Assembly: GCA_033763315.1 (NCBI GenBank)
Contig: JANRKS010000021.1
Coordinates: 74,205 to 138,204 of the forward strand
Direction: 5' to 3'
Length of the DNA stretch: 64,000 nucleotides
Source of the DNA: Deltaproteobacteria bacterium
GTDB taxonomy: Bacteria > Myxococcota_A > Polyangia > Fen-1088
The notes beneath the pieces are model-generated. The model was given only the letters and a program-made list of their open reading frames with translations, did no database searches and was not told the DNA's origin. Shown here in pieces: positions 1 through 29,852 of the stretch. Position 1 is the stretch's first letter; each line of letters begins with the position of its first letter. Both the position numbers and the translations under genes were made by a program.

Positions 1-180
1 TTCTGCGCTTTCGCGCGGCAACAGCTCTTTGAGGTCGGACCGCAGCCGCAGCTGCGTGGCGTAGCCCCACAACGCGGCCGTGGCGACCAGCGCCAGAAAC
101 ACGGTGGTTCTGCAGCGGGTCCTGGTTACATTTACCAAAGCGTCAACGGCGCCAAAGAACCCGGAAGCGAGGGTAGGCAT
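1..180 (-). CDS. MMPL/RND-family lipid transporter, 5' part only (runs off the left window edge)
   Basis: Not in the ORF track. Manual translation from ATG at 180 (-) gives MPTLASGFFGAVDALVNVTRTRCRTTVFLALVATAALWGYATQLRLRSDLKELLPRESAE: a TM helix followed by SDLKELLP, matching ADLQELLP at the same position in the MMPL at 2928-5351. Confidence 0.65.
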   Translation of the reverse strand, partial: MPTLASGFFGAVDALVNVTRTRCRTTVFLALVATAALWGYATQLRLRSDLKELLPRESAE

Positions 181-314
181 ACGTCTGCCCGTTTATCGCG
201 CGGGCTTTGGCCGTCAACCATTCACTTGGCAAACCTTGCGTGGCAAATGTGACGACTTTGCGGCAGCGCTTTGACATGCGCACGGGGCTCACAACGATGT
301 GCCAGGATGCGCGG

Positions 315-1247
315 ATGATCCCTGCCACGGCTCATTTCATCTGGTTGGGCCCCGCCTTTCCGTGGTTCAACGTCCTCGCGGTTCGCTCCGCACTTGATCG
401 CGGTGAATTCGATAAGGCTGTGATTCATCATGACCACCCACCACACGCCGGCAACTGGTCGGCGTTGCTGGTGGATGACCGCGTGCACGCGCGGCGAATC
501 GACGTGAAACAAATGTGTGAGGCCGCGGGCGTTCCTGCGCATCCCATCACAAGCTTGCTCAGCGAACTTGTGGCGCCGGCCGCGCGATCAAACGTGCTGC
601 GTTGTTTGGCGCTGGCAGGCGAAGGCGGCGTATACCTTGATACCGATACCGTAACCATTCGCACGCTCACCGATCTGCGACAAGCCAATGGCGTGTTTTG
701 CGGCCAAGAGCGCGTGGCGGCACCTGCTCGCTGGCAGTCGCCGGGCTGGCGCCGGACATGGTCCTGGGCGTTGATGGGCGTGCGGCACGCGTTTCGGGCG
801 TGGCCACGCGGTTATGTGCCGTTTCGTCGCATCGAGCGGCTTTATCCCTTGGCGGTAAACAACGCTGTGCTTGGAAGCGTCCCCCATCACCCGTTGCTGA
901 TGACGCTGTTGGCCGCGATGGTCAACATGTCACCCGAACGGCGAAAGCGCCGCTTTGCACTCGGCACGCACTTGCTTCAACAGCACATCGAGCGTGAGGC
1001 GCACGACGGGGTCCGCGTGTATCCGCCCGACTTTTTCTATCCCCTGCCCCCAGCCATCGCCGATCATTGGTTTCGCAGCCACAGCAAACACGACGTGGAC
1101 CGCGTGGTTTCAGCAAACACCCGAGTTGTTCATTGGTATGGCTCTCACCATCGCAGGACCCACATGCAGCGGCTCGATCCCGCGTATGTGAAAGCCAACG
1201 CGAAACAGCAGATGCTAAGCCAGCTGGCGGCGCCCTTTTGTGGGTGA
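315..1247 (+). CDS. DXD-motif glycosyltransferase, GT32/Gly_transf_sug type (SUR1/A4GALT-like)
   Basis: IPATAHFIWLG N-terminus, RSNVLR...EGGVYLDTD (DxD), NNAVLG, FFYP, VVHWY; start placed at ATG 315 rather than TTG 207. Confidence 0.8.
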   Translation: MIPATAHFIWLGPAFPWFNVLAVRSALDRGEFDKAVIHHDHPPHAGNWSALLVDDRVHARRIDVKQMCEAAGVPAHPITSLLSELVAPAARSNVLRCLALAGEGGVYLDTDTVTIRTLTDLRQANGVFCGQERVAAPARWQSPGWRRTWSWALMGVRHAFRAWPRGYVPFRRIERLYPLAVNNAVLGSVPHHPLLMTLLAAMVNMSPERRKRRFALGTHLLQQHIEREAHDGVRVYPPDFFYPLPPAIADHWFRSHSKHDVDRVVSANTRVVHWYGSHHRRTHMQRLDPAYVKANAKQQMLSQLAAPFCG

Positions 1248-1251
1248 GGTG

Positions 1252-3066
1252 ATGAACCGCATCAGCGCCTGGCTGCGCAACGATCTGAGGGTGCTGCGCT
1301 TTGCCGCTGCCTATGCCTTGTTCCAGTTTGTCTTAAGCTTCTGGGACCTGCCTGGCAGCCACGGTTGGGACAACGATGGCGTCGCCCCACGCGACATTTT
1401 CGGGGGCCTTGCGAACAACCTTACGCCGGGTCACGCGCACCGCTACCCGCTGTTCCATTACCTTGTCATCGCGATCTTGAGCTGCCCGGCTTGGTTGACC
1501 GCGGTGATCGCCTCACCCGATTGGCACATGGAATCCCTTAAAGCCAGCTTGCTGGCGGTCCCCGTCATGACGGCAGTCTCGATCGTTGCCAAGGCGCTCA
1601 GCGCAGTCATGTCAGGTGTGGCGCTGGTGGCCTTGGCCTCAATCTGTCGCGCTTGTTTTGATCAAGGCAGCGCCCGGTGGGCAGTGTTCGCGGCGGCGTT
1701 GAATTTCTCTTTCTCGTACTACGCCCGCAGCACAAATTTGGATGCGCCGTACCTTATGTGGGTTTGCCTGGCGGTCGATCGAGCCGTGGCGAACAAAGAC
1801 GCTGGTCTCACACAAGTGCGCAGCCACTTGATCTGGATGGGTGTGTTTGCCGCGCTCGGCGTGGCCACAAAAGATCAGGCTTATGCGCCGTTGTTGCCGG
1901 TGCTGCTTTGGGCGTTGTTCACCCCGATGGCAGGCACGACCTTCCTTGCCCGCTGTCGGTGGCTGTGCCTGGCCGCTGCGCCCACGTATGCGCTCGCAAG
2001 CGGGGCGGCTTTGAACCCCACCGGCTTCTTGGCACGATCGAGGTTGTTGACGGGACCCAACAACGATCAATGGCAAACCTACGAAGCCACTTTGACCGGA
2101 CTGCAGGCAAACGTTGCGGACCTCGCAACCGCTTTGCCTTCGTTTTGGTGGCCGACGCCGGTGCTGGCGGTTGGCACGCTGGCAGCCGTTGTGTGCCTCG
2201 GCCGCCTTCGGCGCGACCGTCACTTGCCGCAAGCGCTCACCATCGTGCCTCTGATGGCGGGATTAGGAAACCTTGTCCTCTTTGCGTTGCTGGTGAGACG
2301 CAGCGATCATCGCTTCGTTCTGCCTTTTGGCTTTTTCATGGCCATCTACGTGGGGTATTCGGTTCGGCGCGCGCTCGCATGGGCACCAACGCAAAATTGG
2401 ATCGCACCGGTGGCCGCGTGCGCTTTGATGGCCCTTATGCTGCCATCGCCTTTGGCGCTCGTGATCACCCAATGGACAGACGCGCGGCACCCGTTGACTG
2501 ATTGGTTGGCGGCGCATGCCCGTGGCCGCGTGGTGGAGACCTATGGAGGCCTCGTCTATCAACCACACGTTGAGCGACTTACCGGCGTCACGGTCAACCG
2601 GGTGGAGACATCACAGCCGCGTTTGCGAAACCCTTTGCTCGGTGCCAATGAAGTTTGGGGCGAGCCCTCCGGAGCCGCGGCCCGCGGCGCCGACATCATC
2701 CTTATCTCGCAAGCGTATGCCGAGCGATTTATCGAGCATCCGTCCGCCCACGGCCGAAGGCGGCCCGCCTGGCAAGCAGAAGCACAAGCCTCTTCACAGC
2801 GCACCGCCTTTTTCCGGGGCGCGTTGGCGGGCACGGTGCCAGGTTACCAGTTGGCTTGGCAAAGCCGCCTTTCGCCAGCCGTGTCGACGTTGCACGCGCA
2901 AGCACTGCGCGTGCACGGCAGCACAGGTTACGGCTGGCTGGTTTTCACGCGCGAAAAAGCCGGCAGCACGATCAACACCACCAGCACAGCCATAAACTCG
3001 CCGACCACAGCCGACCATCCAAAACTACGAAGCGCCCCAGAGAACGCCATCAGCAGTGAGCCATAG
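1252..3066 (+). CDS. Polytopic membrane glycosyltransferase, GT-C/ArnT-PMT-like
   Basis: Many TM segments; N-terminal loop GWDNDG, YPLFHY, NLDAPY, ATKDQAY, HRFVLP typical of lipid-linked-sugar GT-C enzymes; starts 4 nt after the upstream GT stop. Confidence 0.6.
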   Translation: MNRISAWLRNDLRVLRFAAAYALFQFVLSFWDLPGSHGWDNDGVAPRDIFGGLANNLTPGHAHRYPLFHYLVIAILSCPAWLTAVIASPDWHMESLKASLLAVPVMTAVSIVAKALSAVMSGVALVALASICRACFDQGSARWAVFAAALNFSFSYYARSTNLDAPYLMWVCLAVDRAVANKDAGLTQVRSHLIWMGVFAALGVATKDQAYAPLLPVLLWALFTPMAGTTFLARCRWLCLAAAPTYALASGAALNPTGFLARSRLLTGPNNDQWQTYEATLTGLQANVADLATALPSFWWPTPVLAVGTLAAVVCLGRLRRDRHLPQALTIVPLMAGLGNLVLFALLVRRSDHRFVLPFGFFMAIYVGYSVRRALAWAPTQNWIAPVAACALMALMLPSPLALVITQWTDARHPLTDWLAAHARGRVVETYGGLVYQPHVERLTGVTVNRVETSQPRLRNPLLGANEVWGEPSGAAARGADIILISQAYAERFIEHPSAHGRRRPAWQAEAQASSQRTAFFRGALAGTVPGYQLAWQSRLSPAVSTLHAQALRVHGSTGYGWLVFTREKAGSTINTTSTAINSPTTADHPKLRSAPENAISSEP

Positions 3067-5351
3067 CCCACAACCGTTGTCAGCGAACAAAGCAGAATCG
3101 CGCCGCCCATGCGTGCGCACGCCGCACGCGCGTTCAAGCCCAAACCATCCATCGCTCCATACAAGTTCAGCAGATAGTCGGCACCCACGCCGATCGTAAT
3201 GGGCACGGCGGCAAAATTGAGCATGTTTACGCGAATGCCAGCGCCCACCACCAGAATCTGCGCCACAAGCGCCACAGGACCAATGACCAACGCCGCAATC
3301 ACCACTCGGCTAGGCTTTTGATAATAAAGCACGACAAGCAGCGAAAGCACGAGCAAGAAAACCACACACACCACGCGCGGGGCCTCCGCATGCACAAGTT
3401 TGAACAACGCGGCCATGAAAAGGAACGGCCCCCCTACCACCACCGAAGAAGGCTTCGGCGTGCTCTCGATCGCTTCGGCCAAGGTTATCATGTGGCGGCC
3501 ATCGCCGTAGTCGATCGCGGTGGACGGATAGATCAAAACCGTCTTATCGCTGCTGCCATCGCGCTCGATCAGATTGCGCAACAGAGGAGGAGGAACCTCG
3601 GCGCGCGTGACGAGCGACAAACCTGCATCGCTCCACCACAAGTCGAGGTGTTGTTTGATGTCCGTGGGCAGGTTCTCCTCGTCTGCCAGCGCCATTTGTG
3701 CTTGCAAACGTTTCAGTTTTGCGAAGCGCCGCTCTTGCTCGGCGGCTTTGGGCACGAACGTTTCAATGGTTTCGATGCGATCCACCAACGGTCGCGGCAC
3801 ATTCTTCAACGACGCCTCAAATGCACCGGCCATCGCTTCACGGTCGCTGGGGTTTGTTGCCAAACCGATGACCGGGTTCACCCACGATCCAAACAAGCGG
3901 TTCATTGTGGCGTCCCATGAGGCGCTGCCCGTCGCCAGGGAACGACGGTTGCGTAGCACCTCCAGGCGCATCTCGTAAAGGCCATGGCGGCGGACCTGCC
4001 AGAGGCCCACACCACACAAAGCCGCGGTCAGCGTGATCAGCGCCAAGGCCGTGCCTTTGGCCAGCCAGGGCGTGAAGAAAAACCTGCGCACCTGACGTTC
4101 CACAGATGTGGCCTCGGCGCCGAGACGTTGTGGCCGCAACCAGGCAATCGCGATCGGCAAACAAAGGTATGTCATCAGCCACGTAGCGATCATGCCAAAG
4201 CCACCAAGGTAGCCGAACTGCGAAAAGCCTCGAAAGCCCGAGACCGCAAGCCCCCCGTAGGCCGCAGAGGCGGTGGCCGCCGCGCCTAACGTGCCCGGCA
4301 AAGCGGCGCGGGCGGCACCCACGATCGCGAATGGCAAACGTTCCTGCGTTTCCCGACGCCGATAGAACGACAAAAACAGAAGCGGATAGTTGATGCCGTT
4401 GCCCGCGATGATCGAACCTAAAAAGGCGGTATTGGAGTTCAGGTGTCCCACCATCAGGCGCCCCAGCCCAAACGCGAATAAGAGGCCGGGCAGCAAAGCC
4501 GCCAAAGCGGCGACGACGCTGGTTAGGGATCGGAAATAGAGTGCAACAAGCGCCGTCACTAACACGAGCACCACAATCGATGTGGAAGACAAGTCCGCGA
4601 TGATCGCATCGTGTTCGTCGATAAAATTGGCCGCGTCGCCGGTGTAGGCCACGTTTACGCCCTGGGGAACGCCGGTGCGTTCAACTTGCTTCTGCACATC
4701 CGCTTTGAGAAGCCGCGCGGTATCGATGTCAACGTCCGAACCGCGTAACCAAACGATGGCGATGACCGTATCGCCTTCCGGAGTTTCGAGGTACCCGTTG
4801 GGGAATCGATCCTTGGCCGCGACGTCCGCCTGAACCCGCCGCTGCAAGCTCAGCCAATCGTCGTCCTTGTCTCCGTCGTCGAGTGACACGAACAGCGGAT
4901 TGGCCCTTGCCTTGCGCTTGTTGATGGCGACGGCTACGTCATCCACGAGCGAGTCGAATTGTTGGGTCGACATGAGCAGCGGTGCCCGCAGGCGCAACCA
5001 CCTGCGCTCAGCCCGCACATCCGCTTGCACCCAAGCAACGCGCGGGGCCCCTGACGCACGCAGATTGGTTGCCAAGGCTTCGATGAATGCACGGTTCTTC
5101 TCGGGGAACTTGCCGTGCGCCACCACCGTGATGTGTCCCTGGCTGGGGATACGGTCGTGGATGCTCTGCAGCGCCCGCGCGGCTTGCGAATCGGTCGGCA
5201 ACAGCTCTTGCAGATCGGCTTTGACGCTCGTAAAAAGCTGCACCGTTTGCCAAGCTGGCCACGCGCACGCCAACATCACAAGTGCGGCCGCCACGCGTGG
5301 CGCGCGGCAAACCGCGCGCACGTATTGAGCGTACCAAGAGCTAAGCGACAT
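2928..5351 (-). CDS. MMPL/RND-family transporter (HpnN-like)
   Basis: Two repeats of periplasmic domain + TM bundle; GNGINY and GVGADY motifs, CSLTTVVGYGSL; likely start MSLSSW at 5351, overlapping the upstream GT stop. Confidence 0.85.
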   Translation of the reverse strand: MSLSSWYAQYVRAVCRAPRVAAALVMLACAWPAWQTVQLFTSVKADLQELLPTDSQAARALQSIHDRIPSQGHITVVAHGKFPEKNRAFIEALATNLRASGAPRVAWVQADVRAERRWLRLRAPLLMSTQQFDSLVDDVAVAINKRKARANPLFVSLDDGDKDDDWLSLQRRVQADVAAKDRFPNGYLETPEGDTVIAIVWLRGSDVDIDTARLLKADVQKQVERTGVPQGVNVAYTGDAANFIDEHDAIIADLSSTSIVVLVLVTALVALYFRSLTSVVAALAALLPGLLFAFGLGRLMVGHLNSNTAFLGSIIAGNGINYPLLFLSFYRRRETQERLPFAIVGAARAALPGTLGAAATASAAYGGLAVSGFRGFSQFGYLGGFGMIATWLMTYLCLPIAIAWLRPQRLGAEATSVERQVRRFFFTPWLAKGTALALITLTAALCGVGLWQVRRHGLYEMRLEVLRNRRSLATGSASWDATMNRLFGSWVNPVIGLATNPSDREAMAGAFEASLKNVPRPLVDRIETIETFVPKAAEQERRFAKLKRLQAQMALADEENLPTDIKQHLDLWWSDAGLSLVTRAEVPPPLLRNLIERDGSSDKTVLIYPSTAIDYGDGRHMITLAEAIESTPKPSSVVVGGPFLFMAALFKLVHAEAPRVVCVVFLLVLSLLVVLYYQKPSRVVIAALVIGPVALVAQILVVGAGIRVNMLNFAAVPITIGVGADYLLNLYGAMDGLGLNARAACARMGGAILLCSLTTVVGYGSLLMAFSGALRSFGWSAVVGEFMAVLVVLIVLPAFSRVKTSQP

Positions 5352-6801
5352 ACGGCTCGTGCAGGGGCGCGGCTTGCAAAGGCAAGCCAAGATCGCGCAG
5401 GGCCTGTTCGGTCTCGTCCCACAAGGGAGCCAACCGCTTGTGGCGATTGACAACCGCGGGCGGCCGCATCAGACCAGCAAGGTATGCGAGCATATGCGTG
5501 ACGCTCCACCGTCCCAGAGCACGGTTACGCGCCATGAATGTGGATGACGGTGCTTGAGAGCGGCAGTGTTCGCGGGCGAGCTCAAACGCCTCGTAGTGTT
5601 TCGCAATCGCCCTTTGCGGCGTACACAACGATTGGGCTCGGCGCCGCGCCGCCTCCGAAACAGCGCGGCGGCGAACCGGGTTCATAAGCAATGACAAGGT
5701 GGCCGCAGCGAACGCTAGATTGGCCTGCGTTTCGGGTTGCGGCTCAATCAACATGCCGGTCTCGTCATCTTCAATTTGGTGGCTTACCCCCATACCATCG
5801 GCAAACGCGACAGCCGGCAAACCACACCACGCCGCTTCACTTATCACCTGCCCATACGTTTCTGACAGCGACGTGTAGACGAAGAGATCCGCGTGGCGGT
5901 ACCAAACAGGCGCCATGCTCGCGGCGCATTCCCCAGGGAAGAAGGTGCGGTGGGCCACGCCCAGTTCATGCGCGAGGGCGCGAAACGCGTCGTGGTCGGG
6001 GCCGTCGCCCACCAACGTCAATGTGGCGTCGGGCGCATAGGGAGCGATTTGCTGCGCGAAAATACAGAGCAGCCGAGCGATGGCTTTTTCGCGTGTATGG
6101 CGGCAGAGCACCAGCAAACGTCCGCCGCGTTTGGCTGTGGGATCGAAGGGATCGCTGTCGCCGGGGGCCTCGAACATTTGTACGTCGATGCTTCGGGGAA
6201 TGACAGAGATGGGCACGTGAACGCCGCGGTCCTGCCAGTAGTGCTTCAGCCCCTCCGACAGCACGATCAGTCCGTCGCTGCGGTTGTAGGTTGCCGCCGC
6301 TTGCTTTTCCAACTTCGGAACCGCCCATTGCTCCAAGAACCGGCGCACGCGCGCGCTGCGGTTCAGCCAATCCGGAAGTACGACGTTGTAAACACTAGGG
6401 AGGTGAATGGTGTTCACGCAAAGAAACGGCACGCGCTTCGCCAAACGTAAGAACACGCCATACTCAGTGAACGCCGATCCTGTTTGGCCCAAGAGCACAT
6501 CGAAGTCGGCCTGCACGCCCGCACGCAGCGCCGCCCGCGACGGCAACGGCAGCTGAACACCGGGATGATTACGCAACGGAATGGCCGGCACCATGAGATG
6601 CCGCCGAGGCAACTCACGAGCGGTTGCCAACGGATCATGGGGCCCCACGACGGTCACTTGATGCCCGCGCCTCACAAACTCCCGATAGAGGCGCTGCGAA
6701 GCGAATGACGACCCGTTCGCGTAGGGAATCCTCACGTAGTCATTGAGGATACCGATGTGGTGCGGCCAAGCGGGCCCTTGTGCCTCTTGCATGGGTGCCA
6801 T
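5341..6801 (-). CDS. GT4-family glycosyltransferase
   Basis: GT-B motifs: RRGHQVTVVGP, LVGDGP, ADLFVYTSLSETYGQVISEAAWCGLP (ExxGxxxxE). Confidence 0.85.
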   Translation of the reverse strand: MAPMQEAQGPAWPHHIGILNDYVRIPYANGSSFASQRLYREFVRRGHQVTVVGPHDPLATARELPRRHLMVPAIPLRNHPGVQLPLPSRAALRAGVQADFDVLLGQTGSAFTEYGVFLRLAKRVPFLCVNTIHLPSVYNVVLPDWLNRSARVRRFLEQWAVPKLEKQAAATYNRSDGLIVLSEGLKHYWQDRGVHVPISVIPRSIDVQMFEAPGDSDPFDPTAKRGGRLLVLCRHTREKAIARLLCIFAQQIAPYAPDATLTLVGDGPDHDAFRALAHELGVAHRTFFPGECAASMAPVWYRHADLFVYTSLSETYGQVISEAAWCGLPAVAFADGMGVSHQIEDDETGMLIEPQPETQANLAFAAATLSLLMNPVRRRAVSEAARRRAQSLCTPQRAIAKHYEAFELAREHCRSQAPSSTFMARNRALGRWSVTHMLAYLAGLMRPPAVVNRHKRLAPLWDETEQALRDLGLPLQAAPLHEPYVA

Positions 6802-6888: not shown

Positions 6889-8094
6889 TCACGCCACGGC
6901 GCCCGCGACAGGCTGAGTGGGTTCAAGGCGGCGCGTGCCCTTGTGGACCAACGCTTCGTGATAGGCGTAGCTCAAGCGGCGCAGCACGGCCGGCCACGTG
7001 AGGTGCCTCAAGATGTACGCGCGGCCTCGCTCACCCATGACTTCGCGATCGGCGCGAGAATGTAGGAGCAGCATTTCCAGAGCGCCCGCAAGCGAGATCG
7101 CGTTGGCAGCCGTAAAGGTGACCCCGCACCCACTCTTCTCTACGAGATCTTTCACAGCGCCAGCGTCAGCTCCCACAACCGGCGTGCCGCACGCCATCGC
7201 TTCGGCCGTCACAAATGAAAAGGTTTCGGCGTGGCTCGGCACAACCACGGCCGTGCTTTGGCTGAGAAGCTCGGCCATCTCTTCTCGCCGGGTGACCGGC
7301 TCGTGCACGCTTAGCCAGGGGCGGTCTTGAGCTGCCATCGTGAGCTTTTTGCGCAAGGGCCCCTCGCCCACGAGCCTCAGCCGCGCACCGGTGCGCGCGT
7401 GGACCGACGCAAACGCGTTAAGCAACAGCGGCAGTTCCTTGTCTCGTGTGAAACGTCCTGCGTAGGTCACGAAAAGTGCAGCACCTGAATCACGCCGCCG
7501 CGGCGCAAACGTATCCACATCCACACCCAAGCCGACGTTGTGTACCCGATGGATGTTGTGCTCGGCCGCCGCGTCTTGCATGTGCCCAGAGGCGACCAGC
7601 GTGGCGTCGTAGTCTTCGTGCTGCCACGCCGCAAACCGCCACATGACTCCAGACAACACATCCGCACCGAGGTTCCACGGCAGCATCGCCGTGACATTTT
7701 GGACCACCTGCCTTGGATGGCTGTGGAAGAACCCAACCAATGCCGGTGGAATTGGCAGCGACGCAACGGCGCGCTTAACCATGTACGGCAGATGGTAGTG
7801 ACTGGCCAACTCCACAACGTCGGGCTCCAAATCACGAAGCTTTCGCTCAAGGCCGCCATTGAGCGCAAAGCGGCGATAAGAGTCGTTGCCTGCAAGCAGC
7901 GGTCCCTCAAGCTCATGCAGCCAGCCGTTGCCGAACGGCGTAACGCGGGTAACGGGGCCGGGCACAACAAAATGGCACTCCACGCGCTGGGGGTCGAGAA
8001 ACCTTGCCTTCTCGGTGTAGTAGCGTTTGATACCGCCACATGAACTCGAGAAGAAGCTGCTGACGTCGACCACGCGAATGCTTTGCAAGGACAT
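6889..8094 (-). CDS. GT4-family glycosyltransferase
   Basis: GGIKRY N-terminal motif, YAGRFTRDK, LVGEGP, PSHAETFSFVTAEAMACGTPVVG; start at ATG 8094. Confidence 0.85.
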   Translation of the reverse strand: MSLQSIRVVDVSSFFSSSCGGIKRYYTEKARFLDPQRVECHFVVPGPVTRVTPFGNGWLHELEGPLLAGNDSYRRFALNGGLERKLRDLEPDVVELASHYHLPYMVKRAVASLPIPPALVGFFHSHPRQVVQNVTAMLPWNLGADVLSGVMWRFAAWQHEDYDATLVASGHMQDAAAEHNIHRVHNVGLGVDVDTFAPRRRDSGAALFVTYAGRFTRDKELPLLLNAFASVHARTGARLRLVGEGPLRKKLTMAAQDRPWLSVHEPVTRREEMAELLSQSTAVVVPSHAETFSFVTAEAMACGTPVVGADAGAVKDLVEKSGCGVTFTAANAISLAGALEMLLLHSRADREVMGERGRAYILRHLTWPAVLRRLSYAYHEALVHKGTRRLEPTQPVAGAVA

Positions 8095-8261
8095 CGTGCC
8101 ACGACTGTTAGCGCAACGGACGCACATCATTGCGTGACAATTTGGAACACTCGCGCGACAAAATATTCACACGCAAGACGTCCGTCTCTCAACTTCGTCG
8201 CCAGCTCGTTGCTATGTGGTCATAAAAACGTCTTACGTGTGCTGCATCTTGGCCTGGCACC

Positions 8262-9320
8262 GTGAACGTTGAAGCCGGTCTTCAGAATCCAGCGCTGTCA
8301 GCACCGCCCACCATCCGTGGGTGGCGTGTGGTGGGCGTCGCCGCTGGCATCGCTGCAGCCACATACCTTGCGGCCCAAGCTGATTGGAGCAAAGCCCGGC
8401 TGCTGCTGAACCACATGGGCGCTTGGGCGCCTTTGGTGGTTCTTCCGTTTCTGCTAGCGATGTGCCTGGGAACCATCGCGTGGCGGCTCTGCCTGATTCA
8501 GCTGGGCAGGCGCTTGCCACTTTCTGCATTGCTCCGCGTGCGCATCATGGCTGAGATGGTGATGACCGTGGTGCCTGGCGGCGCCGTGATCACCGAAACG
8601 CTGAAACCGGTGTGGCTGCGCCGACGTTTCGGCGTTGAACTGGGCGACGGCGCCGCAAGCGTCGTGCTAACCAAGGCGCTCATTCTGCAAACAGCCGGTG
8701 CCTATTGGCTGTTGGCGTTGCTCTTGGCGTACCCACGCTGGGCTTCTGCAGGCGTCAGCATCGCTGGGCCCCTGCGCTGGGTTTGGCAAGGCCTGCCGGC
8801 CCTTGCCCTTGTAATGTGCGGCCTCGGTTGGCTGTTGATGCGGACACTCAAAACAGGCAGCGCCATGAAGCTGCTGCACAGTCTGTTCCGCCGCGTACCG
8901 ATTCCACCGCTACAGCGCGCGCTGGCCAAACAAGATCACCTCATGGCCGCAACCCACGGAAGCTTCGTCCGCTTCTTCGGTGACGGCGCCAATGCGGTGT
9001 GGTTGTGGGGCTTTGTGTTCACCCTGGGGCAATGGTTCGCCGAAGCGGTCGAGACGTTCTTGATTCTCCGGCTGCTCGGCGTTCACATTTCACCGACGGA
9101 CGCCCTGCTGGTGGAAAGCCTCTTGTCCACCGTCCGCGCGTTGGTGTTCTTCCTTCCTGGCGGCCTTGGCGCGCAAGAAGTGGCCGCGTTCTTTCTCTTT
9201 CAATTGGTGGGCGTTCCAAACGCAGAAGCAAGCACCACGGCGTGGGCTTTCACCAAACGGTCAAAAGAAGTTTTCTGGATCGTCACCGCAATCGGTCTCG
9301 GCTTGGTGAAAAGAAGGTAG
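8262..9320 (+). CDS. Lysylphosphatidylglycerol-synthase TM / flippase-like membrane protein (UPF0104, HpnL-like)
   Basis: About 8 TM segments, AWRLCL, VVPGG..ETLKP, FFLPGGLGAQE motif of the LPG_synthase_TM family. Confidence 0.75.
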   Translation: MNVEAGLQNPALSAPPTIRGWRVVGVAAGIAAATYLAAQADWSKARLLLNHMGAWAPLVVLPFLLAMCLGTIAWRLCLIQLGRRLPLSALLRVRIMAEMVMTVVPGGAVITETLKPVWLRRRFGVELGDGAASVVLTKALILQTAGAYWLLALLLAYPRWASAGVSIAGPLRWVWQGLPALALVMCGLGWLLMRTLKTGSAMKLLHSLFRRVPIPPLQRALAKQDHLMAATHGSFVRFFGDGANAVWLWGFVFTLGQWFAEAVETFLILRLLGVHISPTDALLVESLLSTVRALVFFLPGGLGAQEVAAFFLFQLVGVPNAEASTTAWAFTKRSKEVFWIVTAIGLGLVKRR

Positions 9321-9322
9321 TC

Positions 9323-10327
9323 ATGGCGCCAAGAGTTCTCTTTATCTGCGGCTCGCTCAACCAGACCCGACAAATGCACAAAATCGCGCAGCGCCTCCCT
9401 GGTTGCGAAGCCACCTTCTCTCCCTACTACTGCGACGGCCTCGTTGAACAGCTACGGCGCACCGGCATCCTTGAATTCACAATCTTGGGCTGGCGGCGAC
9501 GCAAAGAGTGCCTCCGCTACCTGCGTCAGCATCGCTTGCCACTGGACCACGAGGGCAAGCGCGGCCCGTACGACCTCGTCGTCACGTGTTCGGACGTCAT
9601 CATTCCTCGCAATATCAAGGCCTCGAGGGTGGTGGCGGTCCAAGAGGGGATCACCGATCCGGAACAGTTTTGGTATTGGGCGCGCCGGATCTTTCCCTTC
9701 ATTCCACGGTGGACGTCTGGCACAGCGTGGACAGGCACTTCAAACGAATACGATCGCATGTGTGTCGCAAGCGAGGGCTACCGCCAGCTGTTCGCAAAGC
9801 GTGGTGGTGACGCCACAAAAATGGTGGTTACCGGCATTCCGAACTTCGACAACTGCCAGGAATACTTCATTAACGACTTCCCTCACCATGGCTACGTTTT
9901 GGTGTGCACGTCAGACGCACGTGAAACCCTAAAATTTGATAGCCGCGCGCGGTTCCTAAAGCGTGCGCTGCGGATCGCCGCTGGGCGCCGTCTCATCTTC
10001 AAGCTTCACCCCAATGAGGATTGGAACCGCGCCACCCAAGAAATTAAAGCGGTGGCTCCCGAGGCACTCGTCTTCACCACGGGATGCGCCGAGGAAATGG
10101 TGGCGAACTGCAATGTTTTGGTTTGCCAATACTCCACGCTTGCCTTTGTGGGTGTGGCGCTCGGCAAGGAAGTGCACAGCTATTACAAACTGGACGAGCT
10201 GCAGCGTTTGCTGCCCGAGCAGCATGGACGCGCGGCAGAAGAGATCGCCAAAGTGTGCCGCGGCGTGCTTGAGCTCTCACCGGATCATCTCGCAAACCCC
10301 TTCACTTCAGTGGGAGTGACAGCATGA
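9323..10327 (+). CDS. GT-B-fold protein, candidate CMP-ulosonic-acid (sialyl/Kdo-type) transferase
   Basis: Start at ATG 9323 (MAPRVLFICGS). Motifs QEG, VVTGIPNFD, FKLHP and QYST resemble the (D/E)(D/E)G, HP and S(S/T) motifs of CMP-sugar GT-B transferases. Sits in the operon with the cytidylyltransferase and NeuB. Confidence 0.5.
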   Translation: MAPRVLFICGSLNQTRQMHKIAQRLPGCEATFSPYYCDGLVEQLRRTGILEFTILGWRRRKECLRYLRQHRLPLDHEGKRGPYDLVVTCSDVIIPRNIKASRVVAVQEGITDPEQFWYWARRIFPFIPRWTSGTAWTGTSNEYDRMCVASEGYRQLFAKRGGDATKMVVTGIPNFDNCQEYFINDFPHHGYVLVCTSDARETLKFDSRARFLKRALRIAAGRRLIFKLHPNEDWNRATQEIKAVAPEALVFTTGCAEEMVANCNVLVCQYSTLAFVGVALGKEVHSYYKLDELQRLLPEQHGRAAEEIAKVCRGVLELSPDHLANPFTSVGVTA

Positions 10328-15155: not shown

Positions 15156-15679
15156 ATACGGCTATACCTCTCGATGAACTGCGTCGACGCGCGCGCACCA
15201 TCGCAGTTGTGTTTACGGATTGCGACGGCGTGTTGACCGATGGCAGCGTTTACTACGACCGGCAAGGTGAGAGCATGCTGCGGTTCTCCCGCCGTGACGG
15301 CATGGGTGTCGAACGGCTGCGCGCGCAAAGCATCGAAGTCGCGATTTTGACGCGCGAGACGTCACCGATTGTTGAACATCGTGCGGCCAAGCTAAGCACC
15401 CGGCTGTTCGCTGGCGTCAAAGACAAGCGCGCTGCGTTTCCGGCCCTTTTGCGTGAGATGTATGCGCAGGTCGAAGCCTGCGCGTTCATAGGGGACGACG
15501 TCAATGACCTGGACTTGCTTCGTTACGTAACGTCGATGGGCGGCCTAAGCGGTGCACCCGCAGACGCGCGACCCGAGGTTCGAGACGCCGTTCTGTTTGT
15601 GACCGAAGCGCCTGGAGGCGAAGGCGCGTTCCGAGAATTTGCTGAGTGGATACTTCAACTGCGAGGAGCAACATCATGA
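15149..15679 (+). CDS. KdsC-family HAD phosphatase (Kdo-8-P / KDN-9-P phosphatase-like)
   Basis: FTDCDGVLTDG, RDGMG, FIGDDVND, APADA, GGEGAFRE. Confidence 0.9.
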   Translation: MVNTAIPLDELRRRARTIAVVFTDCDGVLTDGSVYYDRQGESMLRFSRRDGMGVERLRAQSIEVAILTRETSPIVEHRAAKLSTRLFAGVKDKRAAFPALLREMYAQVEACAFIGDDVNDLDLLRYVTSMGGLSGAPADARPEVRDAVLFVTEAPGGEGAFREFAEWILQLRGATS

Positions 15680-18193: not shown

Positions 18194-19673
18194 GTCGACC
18201 CACTCCCAGAAACGGCCACAAGACCAGCAGATACCCAACAATGAAGACCGCAACCGGCAGCCACACCGAATGCGAAAGGCTAGCCGAAACAAAGGCCGAC
18301 ATGGCAGCGATGCTCACAGGAATCGTGGCAGCCAACAGTGGTCGAGCTGAAAACCGAACATTGAGCAACACGCGCACTTGCGCAAGCTGCAGGATCTGCT
18401 GCACGCACGTGCCTGTGGCCACGGCAATGGCGGCTCCCAAAAGCTGAAGCCGAGGCACCAAAAGCAGGTTCAATGAAACGTTCACGGCTGTGGCTATCAC
18501 CGCGTTGACAAGGTTGAGAGCGGGGCGGCCGCTCATCCCTAACACGTTTCCCGACAGTCCAAACGTGCAGCTGACAACCGCGCTTAACAGCAACACAACG
18601 AAAAAGGAGGTTTGCCCCGTGGGCGCCTTGGCGACCTCGAGAATGCCATGGCGTAACAGAATGCAAAGGCCAGCCACCGGTGCCGCCAGCCACAAACACC
18701 AACCACTAACTTTGCCGATGCTTTGGGAGAGCAGGCTCGTTCTTCCCTCGCGAGCCAAGCGCGCCACGAGGCTCGCGTAAACGCCCGCGAACGCCACACG
18801 GATCGTGAAGATCTGTCGAGCGATCTCGGAACCTACCCGGTAGGCCGTAATTAGTCTGTCAGGCAGTGATGCCATTCCCAAGAGCAACAGGTCGACGTCA
18901 AACGTGGCTTGATAAAAGGCCATGTTTAAGGACTGGGGCAGAGCGAACCTCAAAACCGCGCGGTGAGGAGCGGCGCCCCAGGCGCTCCGCAACCCATGAG
19001 GCTTAAAACGCCTACAATAGAGGAAGAGCGCGACCGCCGCGGCCGTCACTTGTGAAATGGTGAAGGCCCAGCAGATGGCGATGGAGGTTGGCGTTGCTTG
19101 GCGCAACAAGGCAAGCGAGGCGAAGAGAACAAGCGGCAGCACAAGGCTCTTGACGATCACGTCGCTTCCCATGCGCATCGAAGATCGCATCACTGCCGTG
19201 GTGATCGAGGCGAGTGACATGAAGGGAAGGCTGGCCGCCACCACCAAGAAGGCCGGTCCCAACCCCGGACGTGAAAACAGCAGACTTCCCAGGGTCTCGC
19301 CGGTCGCCCCAAGGACAATGGCACACAACGTGGAGACGCCTATCGCGTAGGCGGCGGCAGCAAGCACGACGCCATGGATGCGCTCGATGTCCTTTCTCTT
19401 CAGCTCCGTGTCGAAGGGATGGGCGCACAAGAACTGGGCGGCGTCTGAGAAGCCTGCGGAGCACAGAAACGAACAGATACCAACGCTTGCCATCACGAGA
19501 GCCACGCCTGAGAAACCGGGGCCGTACAGGCGCGACGCGACCAGAGGCAACAACCCGAGCGACAGTCGACCCAACGTTCCGAGAAGATTCACGAAGGCCC
19601 CGCGCTTAAGCAACGTATAGTCAGCGGCGCCAGCCAACGCGCCCCCCACGGACAGGCAAGGGAACTCTTGCAC
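18174..19673 (-). CDS. Oligosaccharide flippase (Wzx/MOP superfamily)
   Basis: 12-14 TM segments; RLYGP, LRFALP, DLLLLG, VLGMSGRP, LLVPRLQLLGAAIA. Confidence 0.8.
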   Translation of the reverse strand: MQEFPCLSVGGALAGAADYTLLKRGAFVNLLGTLGRLSLGLLPLVASRLYGPGFSGVALVMASVGICSFLCSAGFSDAAQFLCAHPFDTELKRKDIERIHGVVLAAAAYAIGVSTLCAIVLGATGETLGSLLFSRPGLGPAFLVVAASLPFMSLASITTAVMRSSMRMGSDVIVKSLVLPLVLFASLALLRQATPTSIAICWAFTISQVTAAAVALFLYCRRFKPHGLRSAWGAAPHRAVLRFALPQSLNMAFYQATFDVDLLLLGMASLPDRLITAYRVGSEIARQIFTIRVAFAGVYASLVARLAREGRTSLLSQSIGKVSGWCLWLAAPVAGLCILLRHGILEVAKAPTGQTSFFVVLLLSAVVSCTFGLSGNVLGMSGRPALNLVNAVIATAVNVSLNLLLVPRLQLLGAAIAVATGTCVQQILQLAQVRVLLNVRFSARPLLAATIPVSIAAMSAFVSASLSHSVWLPVAVFIVGYLLVLWPFLGVGRRVHVAV

Positions 19674-19871
19674 GCGTCCTCCGCTGTATCCGAAAACCGT
19701 TCATTCGCCCGCAGCCTTACCACTCGCGCCGGACATCGCACGAAACGAAACGGCGACAGCGCGCGCCGGCCTTCACCGCGGCCACGTGAATTGAGCGTAA
19801 CGTGAGATTTTCGTTCTCGTCGTCAACCCGCTACGACGTTGCCACGGAAGCCCATTACCATCGAGCCACAG

Positions 19872-21095
19872 ATGCATCGCAAAGGGCGTCATTGCTCGCT
19901 GGGGTTTTCACGCCGCACCGTCGTTGCCGGGTTGTTGTCGGCGGGTGCGGCGACCCGGTTCGATGGGGACGCGCCCTGCTCGAGGAGTCCCTTGCTGTCG
20001 ACGTTTTGGTGTCCCTCAGCTTTGACCGTGGAGCAGCACACAGATCCCGCCATCGCTAAGCTGGCTGCCCTGCACAGTCCGGCCCTTGCCTTTACGAACC
20101 CAAACATGTGGCCCGTTGACGTGTCGTATAGCTGGCACGACGGCAGCGACCTGTACTTCGAGGACGTAGGCGGCAAACAGCGAACCGTTCTCACCAATCG
20201 GCTGCTTCGCGAACCGGCAGCCTTCTTTGCACCCAGCGCCGATCACCGCCGCAAGCACTACATCAACAGCCCAGGCGATGGCCCACAGCAAGACGCGTGG
20301 GCGACGGCGTGGCTACGCATTCAAGGACACACGCCCGCAACGGCACTTTATCCACCCACGCAATACGTTCACGCATTTTGGTTGAACCGCCACCTGGGCC
20401 TCTTGGCGATCCAGTATTGGTTCTTCTACCCATTTAATGACTGGGTGAATCGCCACGAAGGCGATTGGGAGCACGTGGCCACGGTGTTCAAAGGCCCAAC
20501 CGCGCTGGAGAATCCCGGCGCCTTCACGCCGGTGGCCACGTTCTTCTATTTTCATGAATGGGTACATGAGGCAAAACAGGTACTGCACCTCAGAGGTGGT
20601 TCTGCCGCTGCAAAGCATCCCGTTGTTTTCGTGGGGGGTCAGGGCGACATGTGGAACCTGTGGCACTGTTCACATCGACAAAGCGGCGGCAGCTACCCTT
20701 GCGCTGGTAGGTTTGCGAACGCAGGTGCCGACAGGGGTTGGCTGGTGTCACCGTCCGAACAGGTCCAGCCTCCCGCGAGGATCATCCTGCCCGAGGACTT
20801 TAGATTGGTCATGCTGCCTGAGCCTGACCACGTGTCCGAACGGCAGTGGCCTCAACTTTGGTGGCTGCGTTGGAACCTGTTCTTTGGGCAACGCCGGATC
20901 GACGGCAATTTGCCATTGATGGGTGCGCTCGCGCTGGACCATCCGCCACATCACCCCGGGCAACACGTCGACTGGAATATGCGTACCAAGCGTCGGCTGT
21001 GGCCCGGCATTGCGCCGCCAACTAACCCGCTAGTCTTGCCGGCAGCGGTTCGGGATCGCCTCGTAACAATAGACGACCGTGCAAAGCTCACGTGA
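19872..21095 (+). CDS. Vps62-like (HEGDWE-motif) protein with possible Tat signal
   Basis: AIQYWFFYPFND...HEGDWEHV and HPVVFVG motifs; N-terminal SRRTVVAGLL; start uncertain (19839 TTG or 19872 ATG). Confidence 0.55.
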   Translation: MHRKGRHCSLGFSRRTVVAGLLSAGAATRFDGDAPCSRSPLLSTFWCPSALTVEQHTDPAIAKLAALHSPALAFTNPNMWPVDVSYSWHDGSDLYFEDVGGKQRTVLTNRLLREPAAFFAPSADHRRKHYINSPGDGPQQDAWATAWLRIQGHTPATALYPPTQYVHAFWLNRHLGLLAIQYWFFYPFNDWVNRHEGDWEHVATVFKGPTALENPGAFTPVATFFYFHEWVHEAKQVLHLRGGSAAAKHPVVFVGGQGDMWNLWHCSHRQSGGSYPCAGRFANAGADRGWLVSPSEQVQPPARIILPEDFRLVMLPEPDHVSERQWPQLWWLRWNLFFGQRRIDGNLPLMGALALDHPPHHPGQHVDWNMRTKRRLWPGIAPPTNPLVLPAAVRDRLVTIDDRAKLT

Positions 21096-21295
21096 AAATT
21101 CTTTTCCCAATTGAAAGAGATTCGCCGCAGCCTTGCAACAACATGCGACCTGACCGCCGACGAGTTGTCACCAGGTTGTAAGCCCAAACGCCCTTACGGG
21201 CGCCATGTTGTCCTTGCGATGGTTCCCACACTACCAATTGCGTTCGCAACGGCACCCGCCCTGTCAGCCCATGAAACTGCGAGACGCGTTTGACG

Positions 21296-22270
21296 ATGCG
21301 CGAATACAGAAGGGTTTTGGTCACCGGCGGAAACGGATTCATCGGTTCACGCGTTGTGCGCGCTTTGGTATCGCGTGGCATCACGGTCCGCTGTCTTCTG
21401 CGAACCACGTCCAATACGTCACGGATCGATGGTCTGCCGTTTGAGCGCGCGATGGGCGACGTGCGCGACGCGGAATCCGTTCGCCAAGCCTTCAACGGCT
21501 GCGACGCGGCCGTTCATCTCGCCAGCCTCTCAAATTGGAATGACATTGATTCCCCCTTAATGACGGAGGTGGTGATGGGCGGCACGCGCAACGTGTTGGA
21601 CGCGGCCAAGCAATGTGGGAACAAGTTGGTGGTGTTCGTTTCATCGGCGGCGGCGGTCAATGGCTCCGAAACGCCGGAGGTCTTTGCTGAGAATGCGGAG
21701 TTCACGCTGAACCACGCGAAATTGTCTTATGCGCAACACAAGCGCGACGCCGAGGCCTTGTGTGCGCAAAGCGGCGTCCCAGTGGTGGTGGTGAACCCCA
21801 CAGAGGTGTATGGCCCGGAAGACATTGGTTTGATCACCGCAGGTAACCTCGTTGATTTTGCGCGTAGCTCACCAGTGATGGTATGCGACGGTGGCACCAG
21901 CATCGTCCACGTTGACGACGTGGCCGACGGGATCGTCCAGGCGTTGCACCGGGGCCGTCCTCACGAGCGTTACATCCTTGGCGGCGACAATCTGACCGTG
22001 ACGGAACTGGCGCAGATGACGTTGAGTCTGGTGGGACGCAAAGCACGCGTGGTAAAATTGCCGAAGACGGCCATAAGGGCCTTGGCCTCCGTGGGGCGCG
22101 CCACGAAATTGCCGTTGCCCTTTAACCCGCGGGTTATCCCTTACGCCACCCGCTATTGGTTTACCGACAACAAGAAAGCCCGCACGGAACTCGGCGTTGA
22201 CTTTCGCTCCGCCGAGGCAACGCTGCGCCCCACCTTGCAGTGGCTGCAACAAACGGGACACATCTCATGA
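21296..22270 (+). CDS. NAD-dependent epimerase/reductase (extended SDR, HpnA/DFR-like)
   Basis: VLVTGGNGFIGS, HLAS, VSSAAA, YAQHK, VNPTEVYGP, VHVDDVA; ATGA-coupled to the PKS. Confidence 0.85.
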   Translation: MREYRRVLVTGGNGFIGSRVVRALVSRGITVRCLLRTTSNTSRIDGLPFERAMGDVRDAESVRQAFNGCDAAVHLASLSNWNDIDSPLMTEVVMGGTRNVLDAAKQCGNKLVVFVSSAAAVNGSETPEVFAENAEFTLNHAKLSYAQHKRDAEALCAQSGVPVVVVNPTEVYGPEDIGLITAGNLVDFARSSPVMVCDGGTSIVHVDDVADGIVQALHRGRPHERYILGGDNLTVTELAQMTLSLVGRKARVVKLPKTAIRALASVGRATKLPLPFNPRVIPYATRYWFTDNKKARTELGVDFRSAEATLRPTLQWLQQTGHIS

Positions 22271-28962: not shown

Positions 28963-28964
28963 CG

Positions 28965-29852
28965 ATGCCACTATTTGCACGCTCAGACGGAGAGTTGGTG
29001 CACACCGAAACACCCGTACGAAGCATTTTGCCGTACGTGATGCGGGGCCGAAACGAAAGCGCGATCTATCATCAGGAAACGTACGACATCACGCGCACAC
29101 GTTCGTGGCTGCGTCAGTTCAATCGGGCCCGCGGTAACAAGCTGCCAGCCAGCTTGTTTCATCTGTTCTTATTTGCATGCGCCCAGGGCCTACACCGCCG
29201 CCCCGAACTAAACCGGTTTGTCTCAGGCGGTCGCCTCTACCGACGCAAAGGTGTTTTTATTTCGTTCGCGGCCAAGAAGGCGTTCAAAGACGACGCGCCC
29301 TTGGTGACCATCAAGCTGTCGTTTCCAGAGATTGAATCATTCGAGCACGCGGTCGATCGCATAAACGAAGCGATTATGCAGGGCCGTGGCGACCGGAGCA
29401 CCACCGTGGATAAAGAGCTGGCTTTGGCGATGGCGCTGCCACGTTGGTTGCTGCGCGCGGTGATGGCGCTGCTGCGGTGGCTCGATGGTATGAATCTTAA
29501 GCCGCGCTTCATGATTGAAAGTGATCCTCTCTACACAAGTTTGTTTGTGGCGAACCTGGGCTCCGTGGGGTTGGATCGTGTGTTCCATCACCTTTACGAA
29601 GACGGCACGGCCAGCGTTTTTGGCGCGCTTGGCGTGCCACGCAAGGCAACCGCGTTAGATCGTCACGGACGCGTCCAGACGCACGACGAGGTTGAGGTGA
29701 GGTGGACGCTCGACGAACGAGTGGCCGACGCCTTCTATTGCGCAGCCAGCTTGAAGATCGCCAGGCGCATCATTGAGGATCCGGCGCGTCACTTCGGCGC
29801 GGAGAACATGACGCTTCCGGCTGTAGAAGAAGCGGCCCTGGTTTCAGGTTGA
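28965..29852 (+). CDS. Stand-alone 2-oxoacid-dehydrogenase E2 / CAT-fold acyltransferase-like protein
   Basis: RPELNRFVSG, FVANLGSVG and WTLDERVADAFY align to the E2 catalytic domain; no lipoyl domain; starts 2 nt after the PKS stop. Confidence 0.7.
   Translation: MPLFARSDGELVHTETPVRSILPYVMRGRNESAIYHQETYDITRTRSWLRQFNRARGNKLPASLFHLFLFACAQGLHRRPELNRFVSGGRLYRRKGVFISFAAKKAFKDDAPLVTIKLSFPEIESFEHAVDRINEAIMQGRGDRSTTVDKELALAMALPRWLLRAVMALLRWLDGMNLKPRFMIESDPLYTSLFVANLGSVGLDRVFHHLYEDGTASVFGALGVPRKATALDRHGRVQTHDEVEVRWTLDERVADAFYCAASLKIARRIIEDPARHFGAENMTLPAVEEAALVSG

Follow-up and report, generated by a model that had tools for sequence, protein, structure and literature searches.

Can a single bacterial locus build, decorate and export a lipid resembling a ganglioside? 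The question is raised by a window of 64,000 nucleotides from a Deltaproteobacteria bacterium (assembly GCA_033763315.1, contig JANRKS010000021.1, positions 74,205 to 138,204), whose first 29,852 positions the first-pass annotation read as one such pathway. Here we report that this region joins two units. Unit A (21290-29852, with the MMPL gene at 2928-5453) centres on a polyketide synthase fused to an alpha-oxoamine synthase (PKS-AONS), and unit B (8262-17387) is an operon for an activated ulosonic acid. A sphingoid-type polyketide lipid as the product of unit A, and a lipid-directed CMP-ulosonate pathway in unit B, are each well supported at the level of family, motif and synteny. We suggest, with a probability of about 0.45, that these are two separable lipid units fused in this genome and probably cooperating, in which case an anionic glyco-amino-lipid would be made and exported to an outer membrane lacking lipid A. 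The chemistry of each step and the coupling between the units are inferred from gene content, motifs, modelled folds and synteny.

The fused protein of unit A has the motifs of a type I PKS. Those of the ketosynthase (KS) are intact (DAACSS with C214, HGT349, NIGH387); the acyltransferase domain (AT) has GHSLG with HAFH, which we take to be the malonyl signature; the acyl carrier protein (ACP) has GFDSL; the ketoreductase (KR) has GATGSIG and HAAGETDD, presumably B-type-like; and the dehydratase (DH) has HVIAARPVLP, with alanine replacing glycine, and DGVLQ. Its KS-AT-ACP-KR-DH arrangement matches PfaA-type synthases (TIGR02813, 524 bits), and neither an enoyl reductase (ER) nor a thioesterase was found among the domains. 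The C-terminal part qualifies as an alpha-oxoamine synthase by its pyridoxal-phosphate (PLP) fold-type I domain (Aminotran_1_2, 183 bits) and its catalytic lysine, K2072, within SKS. Catalytic residues and motif positions are invariant across 14 homologs. The AONS domain belongs to a broad subfamily to which it is 45-59% identical, and it stays below the BioF cut-off (351 against 426 bits); that it also stays below the serine palmitoyltransferase (SPT) equivalog cut-offs (319, 274 and 215 bits against 640, 500 and 670) speaks against a sphingoid product. The source genome (G000) has two other AONS genes, in BioF-BioD and Tdh-Kbl contexts, and the fusion is therefore its only candidate sphingoid-base synthase.

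The steps of unit A can be proposed from these domains. The KS would take a fatty acyl starter and the AT load malonate; one extension with ketoreduction and dehydration would leave the chain as 2-enoyl-ACP (or 3-hydroxyacyl-ACP). The fused PLP domain would then join this chain to an amino acid, serine being the probable one, and so form a 3-keto sphingoid base. The short-chain dehydrogenase (SDR) resembling HpnA (222 bits against an NCBIfam cut-off of 367.65) would then reduce the ketone, the E2/CAT-type acyltransferase would N-acylate the amine to a ceramide-like lipid, and the MMPL/RND protein at 2928-5453 (MMPL_A) would move it outward. The acyltransferase has 1370 homologs, PF00198 being present in all 120 among the matches listed, and a sequence-only search of the PDB gave no significant match for it. 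MMPL_A is recognisable as an MMPL/RND protein by a Pfam MMPL match of 80.8 bits in two stretches and nine hydrophobic segments in a crude scan.

Unit A is an uncharacterised fused variant of a polyketide route to sphingoid bases published in 2025. In that report, the SgaA/SgaB/SgaC route makes sphinganines in Pseudomonas fluorescens MYb115, and its oxoamine synthase (AOS) is a serine-specific SPT that prefers L-serine (PMC12134224). In the window, as in SgaAB, a type I PKS would hand its acyl chain to an alpha-oxoamine synthase, with a reductase gene nearby. Unlike SgaAB, the window has PKS and AONS in one protein without an ER, whereas an SgaAB-type locus of Pseudomonas sp. S37 (L040) has KS-AT-DH-ER-KR-ACP and a stand-alone synthase 53% identical to the window's AONS domain; the window's reductase is also an HpnA-type extended SDR, and its cassette includes the CAT/E2-fold acyltransferase and an MMPL gene. 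In L040 (313-8475) genes of the GT4, sugar epimerase, UDP-glucose dehydrogenase, asparagine synthase and Wzy_C-like kinds come before the PKS/AONS pair, so that a Pseudomonas, too, has glycan genes adjoining a PKS-sphingolipid pair.

Relatives were surveyed for the fusion in 41 related genomes, 25 of them from the window's family; gene calls there were imperfect, some genes being missed or mis-started, and counts were therefore taken from tblastn and Pfam matches. The full fusion occurs in G000, in G001 and G002 of the same genus, and in G005, G006, G019 and G020 of the same family, while G028 has a partial copy at a contig end; the cassette is thus carried by seven of the 25 family genomes, or 8 of 41 with the partial copy. 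Downstream, the E2/CAT-type acyltransferase (56-76% identical) adjoins the PKS in all six relatives whose sequence extends that far; upstream, four relatives have the HpnA-like reductase; and an MMPL gene stands divergently beside the PKS in another set of four (Table 1). G001, G005 and G020 have a small FA_hydroxylase gene between PKS and acyltransferase. Judged by its genes, the relatives' cassette is that of a membrane amino-lipid with a head group.

Two of these relatives have a PAP2_C (sphingomyelin-synthase-like) gene (G005, L089:7925-8662, 34.9 bits; G019, L093:6304-7002, 25.2 bits, below the cut-off of 27), placed between MMPL and PKS; the same position in the window holds glycan genes. 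In G000, tblastn (1e-5) detected no counterpart of either the cassette hydroxylase or the PAP2_C gene seen in relatives. A profile search of genome contigs with the PKS alignment returned mostly stand-alone AONS genes or unrelated PKSs. Only Archangium-type fusions were full length, at 37-38% identity; none has the cassette reductase or acyltransferase, and we set them aside.

Could the operon instead make a diffusible secondary metabolite, an amino-polyketide signal or an inhibitor of the sphingolipid pathway, with the MMPL protein as an efflux pump? Fungal sphinganine-analogue toxins use a PKS with an AONS, as far as the accessible parts of the literature describe them; repeated cycles without an ER could give a polyene; and the cassette is patchy. 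The family is, however, large and conserved, with at least 1171 homologs of similar length sharing KR-DH-AONS, the named ones from Myxococcota metagenome-assembled genomes (MAGs). The constant acyltransferase, together with a lipid hydroxylase or PAP2_C in some relatives, is the pattern of a membrane lipid, and the operon has no toxin-typical tailoring enzymes. We consider a diffusible metabolite very improbable. The sphingoid or ceramide-type lipid pathway with an MMPL exporter that the first-pass annotation proposed is supported by the motifs, the likeness to an SgaAB-type AONS and the synteny of the cassette.

Turning to unit B, the annotated set of NeuB-type synthase, phosphatase and cytidylyltransferase is real at family level and lies in an operon with lipid-directed genes. 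The operon also holds four genes missing from the earlier list: a split transketolase (two genes), a class III aminotransferase and an SDR. The synthase scores 245.6 bits against a TIGR03569 cut-off of 399.65, short of the equivalog; its match, over profile positions 1-278 of 329, leaves out the C-terminal (SAF) domain that such enzymes usually have. The HAD phosphatase passes the KdsC subfamily cut-off (TIGR01670), the sole cut-off of its kind that the triad reaches, and falls short of the Kdn-9-P phosphatase equivalog NF058599 (134.5 against 180 bits). The cytidylyltransferase matches CTP_transf_3; KdsB models match its first ~120-145 residues only, below their cut-offs. Since transketolase, SDR and aminotransferase share the operon with the triad, the safest description of the predicted sugar is an amino-modified 3-deoxy-2-ulosonic acid. 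The annotation had labelled it nonulosonic, and against that label an 8-carbon or another amino-ulosonic acid is an equal candidate; the sugar may also sit directly on the lipid instead of capping an oligosaccharide.

All ten genes of unit B are kept in G001 (51-79% identity) and, rearranged, in G002. Among 400 further genomes from the phylum the unit recurs in three (G406, G281, G222), where its flanks are unrelated housekeeping genes, and its ulosonate genes recur in 24 of 80 metagenome loci. The flippase-like gene keeps its position in G001, G406 and G281 and in loci L148, L150 and L166. The closing gene, a hydroxylase with three His boxes whose best named relative is OlsE, comes last in the operon in every locus long enough to show it (G001, G406, G281, G222 and six metagenome loci), which ties the sugar pathway to a lipid; unit B always carries lipid-directed genes. 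In G222 (L111:7472-8617) a glutathione-synthetase-like ATP-grasp gene replaces the transketolase pair, which suggests a variant sugar or one ligated to an amino acid.

We propose that transketolase, SDR and aminotransferase would shape a sugar; the NeuB-type enzyme would condense the sugar phosphate with phosphoenolpyruvate, the KdsC-type phosphatase remove the phosphate and the cytidylyltransferase make the CMP-sugar. The protein encoded by the second gene, g07, would transfer this sugar to a lipid hydroxyl, the His-box enzyme would hydroxylate the lipid, and the flippase-like protein would turn it over, while the two GT4 enzymes, the GT32 and the GT-C would add further sugars. For the GT32 gene (207-1247, its true start probably some codons later) Gly_transf_sug is reached (30.7 bits against 23) and Gb3_synth just missed (22.1 against 22.3). 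For the GT-C gene (1240-3066), neither the G001 nor the G002 unit-B locus, as fetched, contains a match. Flippase candidates are 8262-9320 (LPG_synthase_TM) and 18174-19673 (weak SpoVB match).

The transfer step depends on what g07 is. It has at least 5795 homologs, none of them named, with an invariant FKLHPNE motif, which we take to resemble the HP motif of CMP/CDP-dependent GT-B enzymes, and a QYSTLAF motif. Its AlphaFold model (pLDDT 89.4) has a GT-B fold. A sequence-only PDB search gave no significant match; the family profile matched a single PDB entry, the TagF-like capsule polymerase Cps3D (E 0.044), with QYSTLAF aligned to DYSSIIY, and the Pfam Glyphos_transf score is 11.5 bits against a cut-off of 22.1. 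In VIA-align the model comes nearest to UDP-GlcNAc 2-epimerases including NeuC (Z 17.0-17.8), followed by TagF (15.2), PglA (15.0) and a polysialyltransferase (13.8). From these models and motifs, g07 could be a cytidine-nucleotide-dependent transferase onto lipid or an epimerase-like enzyme.

The contexts of g07 say more about it; they were scored in the 80 metagenome loci, 33 of which are too short to judge. Ulosonate genes stand beside it in the 24 loci already mentioned, an AONS ~50-57% identical to the window's AONS domain in 11, other KS/PKS lipid genes in eight, and neither, despite room to see, in four; ulosonate genes and AONS together occur in none of the 80. The 22 lipid-context sequences form one clade (SH-aLRT 100, quick IQ-TREE) nested among ulosonate-context sequences. 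By these sequence contexts g07 appears linked to this AONS subfamily at least twice, in that clade and in the window.

A g07 acting as a NeuC-like sugar-nucleotide 2-epimerase or hydrolase that feeds NeuB, the CMP-sugar being used elsewhere for capsule, exopolysaccharide (EPS) or protein glycosylation, would agree with the top structural matches, which include the epimerase domain of GNE, and with precomputed PF02350 matches in a few homologs. The phosphatase of the operon argues instead for a phosphorylated aldose, not free ManNAc; the only PDB profile match is a polymerase, on the QYSTLAF stretch; the g07 clade sits in AONS/ABC-2 lipid clusters that lack NeuB and offer no obvious role for an epimerase; and the operon always has a membrane lipid hydroxylase and a flippase-like gene. 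An epimerase thus seems to us a long shot, and we keep a lipid-directed transferase as the working role of g07.

A recurring, apparently undescribed cluster (L146, L147, L153, L157, L167, L184, L185, L192-L194, L197; L049, L051) encodes, besides a g07 homolog, a FAAL-ACP-AONS fusion of ~1110-1170 aa, an ABC-2 permease with an ABC ATPase, a radical-SAM/SPASM protein, an HpnA-like SDR and a protein of ~380 aa. KS, FabA-like, SDR or sulfatase-family genes are present in addition in some copies, and the cluster also occurs in a Phycisphaerales MAG and a betaproteobacterial MAG. That the ~380-aa proteins are bacterial ceramide synthases (bCerS) is a lead only, judged by sequence: of five tested, four had no NCBIfam match, and the fifth had a sub-threshold ArsN1 N-acetyltransferase match (16.8 bits, NCBIfam) and a weak GNAT match in Pfam. 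In L165, L178 and L179, g07 homologs stand beside an epimerase-family SDR, a ~380-aa protein and a large PKS opening with an NMO (enoyl-reductase-like) domain before KS-AT; L178 has a squalene-hopene cyclase gene upstream.

Do the two units serve one product? Several observations weigh against it. The PKS operon and the NeuB/glycosyltransferase operon, which the first-pass annotation took as one pathway, are not co-located in any of six PKS-bearing relatives (8-60 kb fetched), nor in five other operon-bearing genomes or 31 metagenome loci of at least 9 kb; they are unlinked in every relative examined, same genus included, which is the outcome that the annotation itself had named as refuting its reading. 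G001 (~20 contigs) has the PKS cassette, unit B and the MMPL_A ortholog (61% identical, alone) on three different contigs. G005, G006, G019, G020 and G028 have the PKS and lack g07, and where a unit-B NeuB ortholog was sought, none was found (G005 no match, G019 38% and G020 36% identity). Conversely, G406, G281 and G222 have unit B without a PKS-type AONS (best identity 34-36%). The g07 evidence has its own cautions: the model lies nearest to 2-epimerases including NeuC, and g07 may therefore not be a transferase; the lipid-context sequences, being a single clade, count as one evolutionary event; and since the Phycisphaerales and betaproteobacterial MAGs (G436, G437), both with lipid-context g07, have no unit-B NeuB, g07 there must use another donor. 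Finally, no independent contig bridges the junction to the PKS operon (19770-21290).

Other observations argue for coupling. MMPL_A, linked to the cassette in four relatives, is here co-directional and overlapping with the GT4 genes that flank unit B in G001. The same MMPL_A-GT4 order is found in X3, a 43-kb contig from an independent metagenome run that is ~94% identical to, and collinear with, window 3000-19769; that part of the window is thus not an assembly artefact. (Runs X1, X2 and X4 gave short pieces only, and the small joints of X3, with 21-letter sides, were not trusted.) The AONS subfamily found beside the g07 clade is that of the window, no further Spt candidate exists in G000, a gene with a Nep1-like protein (NLP) fold, g18, lies between the units, and searches for LpxC and LpxB in the family's genomes were negative (see below). 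We also list for coupling that the unit-B genomes without the PKS have a third AONS, neither BioF nor Kbl: in G222 within KS-KS-AONS with FAAL and an ABC-2 exporter, in G406 beside an ACP gene, and in G281 with no informative neighbours.

On the same evidence the units may be two independent neighbouring systems, with unit A making a ceramide-like or phospho-sphingolipid-like membrane lipid exported by the MMPL protein and unit B with the glycosyltransferases either decorating another acceptor (a glycerolipid, an ornithine lipid or another amino-lipid) or building a lipid-anchored glycan. The missing co-location and the occurrence of each unit without the other fit this, as do unit B's own lipid genes; in G001 it is adjoined by GT32, both GT4s, g18 and an RND gene of its own, 24% identical to MMPL_A. 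The best named relative of the second GT4 enzyme (GT4b) is a lipid GlcNAc transferase acting on phosphatidylglycerol, below its cut-off, and that of the hydroxylase is OlsE. The overlap of MMPL_A with the GT4 genes, the recurrence of g07 beside the same AONS subfamily and the lack of another Spt candidate in G000 tell against independence, which we regard as quite possible though short of probable. We continue to favour two cooperating units. The annotation's view of each unit's pathway type is supported; a single ganglioside-like molecule made by both is plausible in this genome, and the missing co-location in other genomes contradicts it as a rule.

What need would such a lipid meet? No LpxC and no WaaA match was found in G000 (91% complete). 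LpxC and LpxB were found in none of the 25 family genomes and in 10 of 16 and 8 of 16 genomes, respectively, in other families of the class, with control genomes positive; among the six unit-B genomes, LpxC is absent in five and present in G406. By these searches the window's family looks lipid-A-less. A lineage lacking lipopolysaccharide (LPS) needs another outer-leaflet lipid, and an RND-exported anionic glyco-amino-lipid would suit that role. The PKS cassette, carried by only seven of the 25, cannot be a general solution to that lack.

The protein g18, of 418 aa and probably exported by the Tat system, has an invariant HEGDWEH stretch. Only two of 48,161 chains matched its model (pLDDT 82.7) with Z of at least 5, both NLPs (12.2 and 11.6; next best 2.7); the stronger match spans 199 of 222 residues, and the Foldseek top ten are all NLPs. 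Compared with NLP cytolysins, g18 shares the NLP core, is twice the size, appears Tat-exported and has no NPP1 match: it has no Pfam match at all, and one of 26 relatives has a weak NPP1 match (E 0.0098). Its family, for which Pfam has no model, counts 794 representatives; contig C32 holds a paralog 37% identical to it, and in both G001 and G002 an ortholog adjoins unit B. Two reports describe NLPs as binding plant glycosphingolipids at the sugar head group (PMC6743777, PMC12513423). An NLP fold within a bacterial glycolipid locus hints at a possible ancestral role for the glycosphingolipid-binding fold of plant-pathogen cytolysins.

A fuller reading, Kdo on ceramide, takes all components jointly as a functional LPS stand-in built by a family that has lost lipid A. 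The fused PKS-AONS would by itself, with no desaturase needed, yield a delta-4-unsaturated sphingoid base, since its DH would leave a 2-enoyl chain for condensation with serine; the E2/CAT-fold enzyme would be a third, convergent kind of ceramide synthase; g07, as a new GT-B family, would attach the CMP-activated amino-ulosonic acid to the lipid; and the MMPL pump with the periplasmic NLP-fold protein would carry the glycolipid to the outer leaflet. As a conjunction of all these parts it is unlikely.

Related systems show how far each likeness extends. The canonical ceramide pathway of Caulobacter, as described in the accessible parts of three reports, uses Spt, ACP, acyl-ACP synthetase, CerR and bCerS (PMC11324152, PMC9386255, PMC11087976). 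The window would share with that description AONS condensation, keto reduction by an NAD-dependent epimerase-family enzyme and N-acylation; it differs from it in having no stand-alone Spt, ACP or GNAT-type ceramide synthase in the locus and in the fold of its acyltransferase. The FAAL-ACP-AONS clusters with g07 look closer to the Caulobacter pathway than the window does. Unit B resembles Kdo, Kdn and sialic acid activation in its triad of NeuB-family synthase, KdsC-type phosphatase and CTP_transf_3, and is unlike those pathways in reaching no equivalog cut-off except the KdsC subfamily, in its truncated synthase, in the added split transketolase, aminotransferase and SDR, and in ending with a lipid hydroxylase. 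With TagF-like CDP-alcohol transferases and CMP-sugar GT-B enzymes, g07 shares the GT-B fold, the KLHP motif and the likeness of QYST to the DYSS of Cps3D, while its Glyphos_transf score is below the Pfam threshold and its modelled structure lies closer to the 2-epimerases.

Outer membranes with glycosphingolipids are reportedly found in bacteria lacking LPS, namely Sphingomonas and Sorangium cellulosum So ce56, and like them the window's Gram-negative lineage lacks lipid A genes and has sphingolipid-type genes. To our knowledge, neither an ulosonic acid head group nor a PKS-made base has been reported for those glycosphingolipids. The likeness to animal gangliosides holds only if a CMP-activated acidic sugar ends on a ceramide-like lipid; the window's sugar, unlike that of gangliosides, may be C8 or amino-modified and perhaps directly on the lipid. 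The first-pass annotation did not recognise a described pathway. That stands for the fused form and the ulosonate operon, and must be corrected for PKS-made sphingoid bases, in print since 2025 (PMC12134224). Our literature search, mostly of titles and abstracts, found nothing on fused PKS-AONS proteins, the unit-B operon, g07 or the E2-type acyltransferase.

If the units share a product, it would be the first lipid from a bacterium in which a sphingoid base and an acid sugar of the Kdo or sialic type are combined, and would answer how myxobacteria without LPS fill the outer leaflet of their outer membrane. Even if they are independent, the fused PKS-AONS and its many homologs suggest a way of making sphingosine-type bases that needs no desaturase, the E2-fold acyltransferase may be a new type of ceramide synthase, and g07 represents a very large unnamed family found with either ulosonate or AONS lipid genes.

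Table 1. Genes of the proposed lipid locus at the left end of the window, with the evidence for each assignment.
Feature	Position	Strand	Evidence
MMPL/RND transporter no. 2, first ~60 codons	1..180	-	tblastn; whole gene C21:71883-74384, 833 aa; Pfam MMPL 90.4 bits
GT32-type glycosyltransferase	207..1247	+	Pfam; DTD at residue 145; G001 ortholog (63%) next to unit B
GT-C (PMT_2/ArnT-like) membrane glycosyltransferase	1240..3066	+	Pfam PMT_2 31 bits; 7 hydrophobic segments
MMPL_A, MMPL/RND exporter	2928..5453	-	Pfam/NCBIfam; 49-52% orthologs beside PKS cassette in G005, G006, G019, G020
GT4a glycosyltransferase	5341..6801	-	Pfam; 68% ortholog in G001 unit-B locus
GT4b glycosyltransferase	6889..8130	-	NCBIfam NF053787 169 bits (cut-off 480); 57% ortholog in G001
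Flippase-like membrane protein (LPG_synthase_TM / HpnL-like)	8262..9320	+	Pfam 96.9 bits; first of 10 operon genes
g07, GT-B fold protein of unnamed family, candidate transferase	9323..10327	+	Structure model, family profile, contexts
KdsB/NeuA-type cytidylyltransferase (CTP_transf_3)	10324..11133	+	Pfam 87.9 bits
Split transketolase, N-terminal 11140-11988 and C-terminal 11985-12953	11140..12953	+	Pfam/NCBIfam
Class III aminotransferase (GSA-aminomutase-like)	12958..14316	+	Pfam 169.5 bits; NF004856 354.9 bits (cut-off 486); start uncertain, ORF opens at 12643
Short-chain dehydrogenase (SDR)	14313..15155	+	Pfam
KdsC / Kdn-9-P-phosphatase-type HAD phosphatase	15140..15679	+	TIGR01670 116.9 bits (cut-off 106.95)
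NeuB-family ulosonate(-phosphate) synthase	15646..16578	+	Pfam NeuB 247.6 bits
His-box lipid hydroxylase (FA_hydroxylase, OlsE-like), last operon gene	16581..17387	+	Pfam 102.6 bits; HRAQH/HEAHH/HRWHH
Protein without Pfam/NCBIfam match	17354..18292	-	No match in relatives' fetched loci; present in X3 contig
Polytopic membrane protein, weak SpoVB/MOP-flippase likeness	18174..19673	-	TIGR02900 33.8 bits; 10 hydrophobic segments
g18, probably Tat-exported, NLP fold core	19839..21095	+	Structure model, fold searches
Extended-SDR reductase (HpnA-like), candidate 3-keto reductase	21290..22270	+	Pfam/NCBIfam; 57-71% orthologs directly upstream of PKS in G001, G005, G006, G020
Fused PKS-oxoamine synthase KS-AT-ACP-KR-DH-AONS, 2240 aa	22240..28962	+	Pfam; motifs
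Stand-alone E2/CAT-fold acyltransferase (HHLYEDG), candidate N-acyltransferase	28965..29852	+	Pfam 2-oxoacid_dh 27.3 bits (cut-off 23)

All gene classes named by the first-pass annotation were recovered at or near the positions it gave, from the open reading frame (ORF) listing, Pfam and NCBIfam. Of its two MMPL genes, one lies inside the window and the second almost wholly to its left, with an SRPBCC lipid-binding gene (Polyketide_cyc2, 45.6 bits) just beyond. In the ORF listing, genes are tightly packed with stop/start overlaps along 8262-17387, from 8130 down to 2928, and along 21290-29852. The window has no tRNA genes, and tRNAs thus give no island signature. Both flanks are unrelated to the locus, with a helicase and an MscS channel on the left and a choice-of-anchor D protein and an ammonium transporter on the right. 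Further along, on the minus strand at 35169-41193, an ABC protein, a C39-peptidase ABC exporter and an HlyD-family protein form a bacteriocin-type export set, likewise unrelated.

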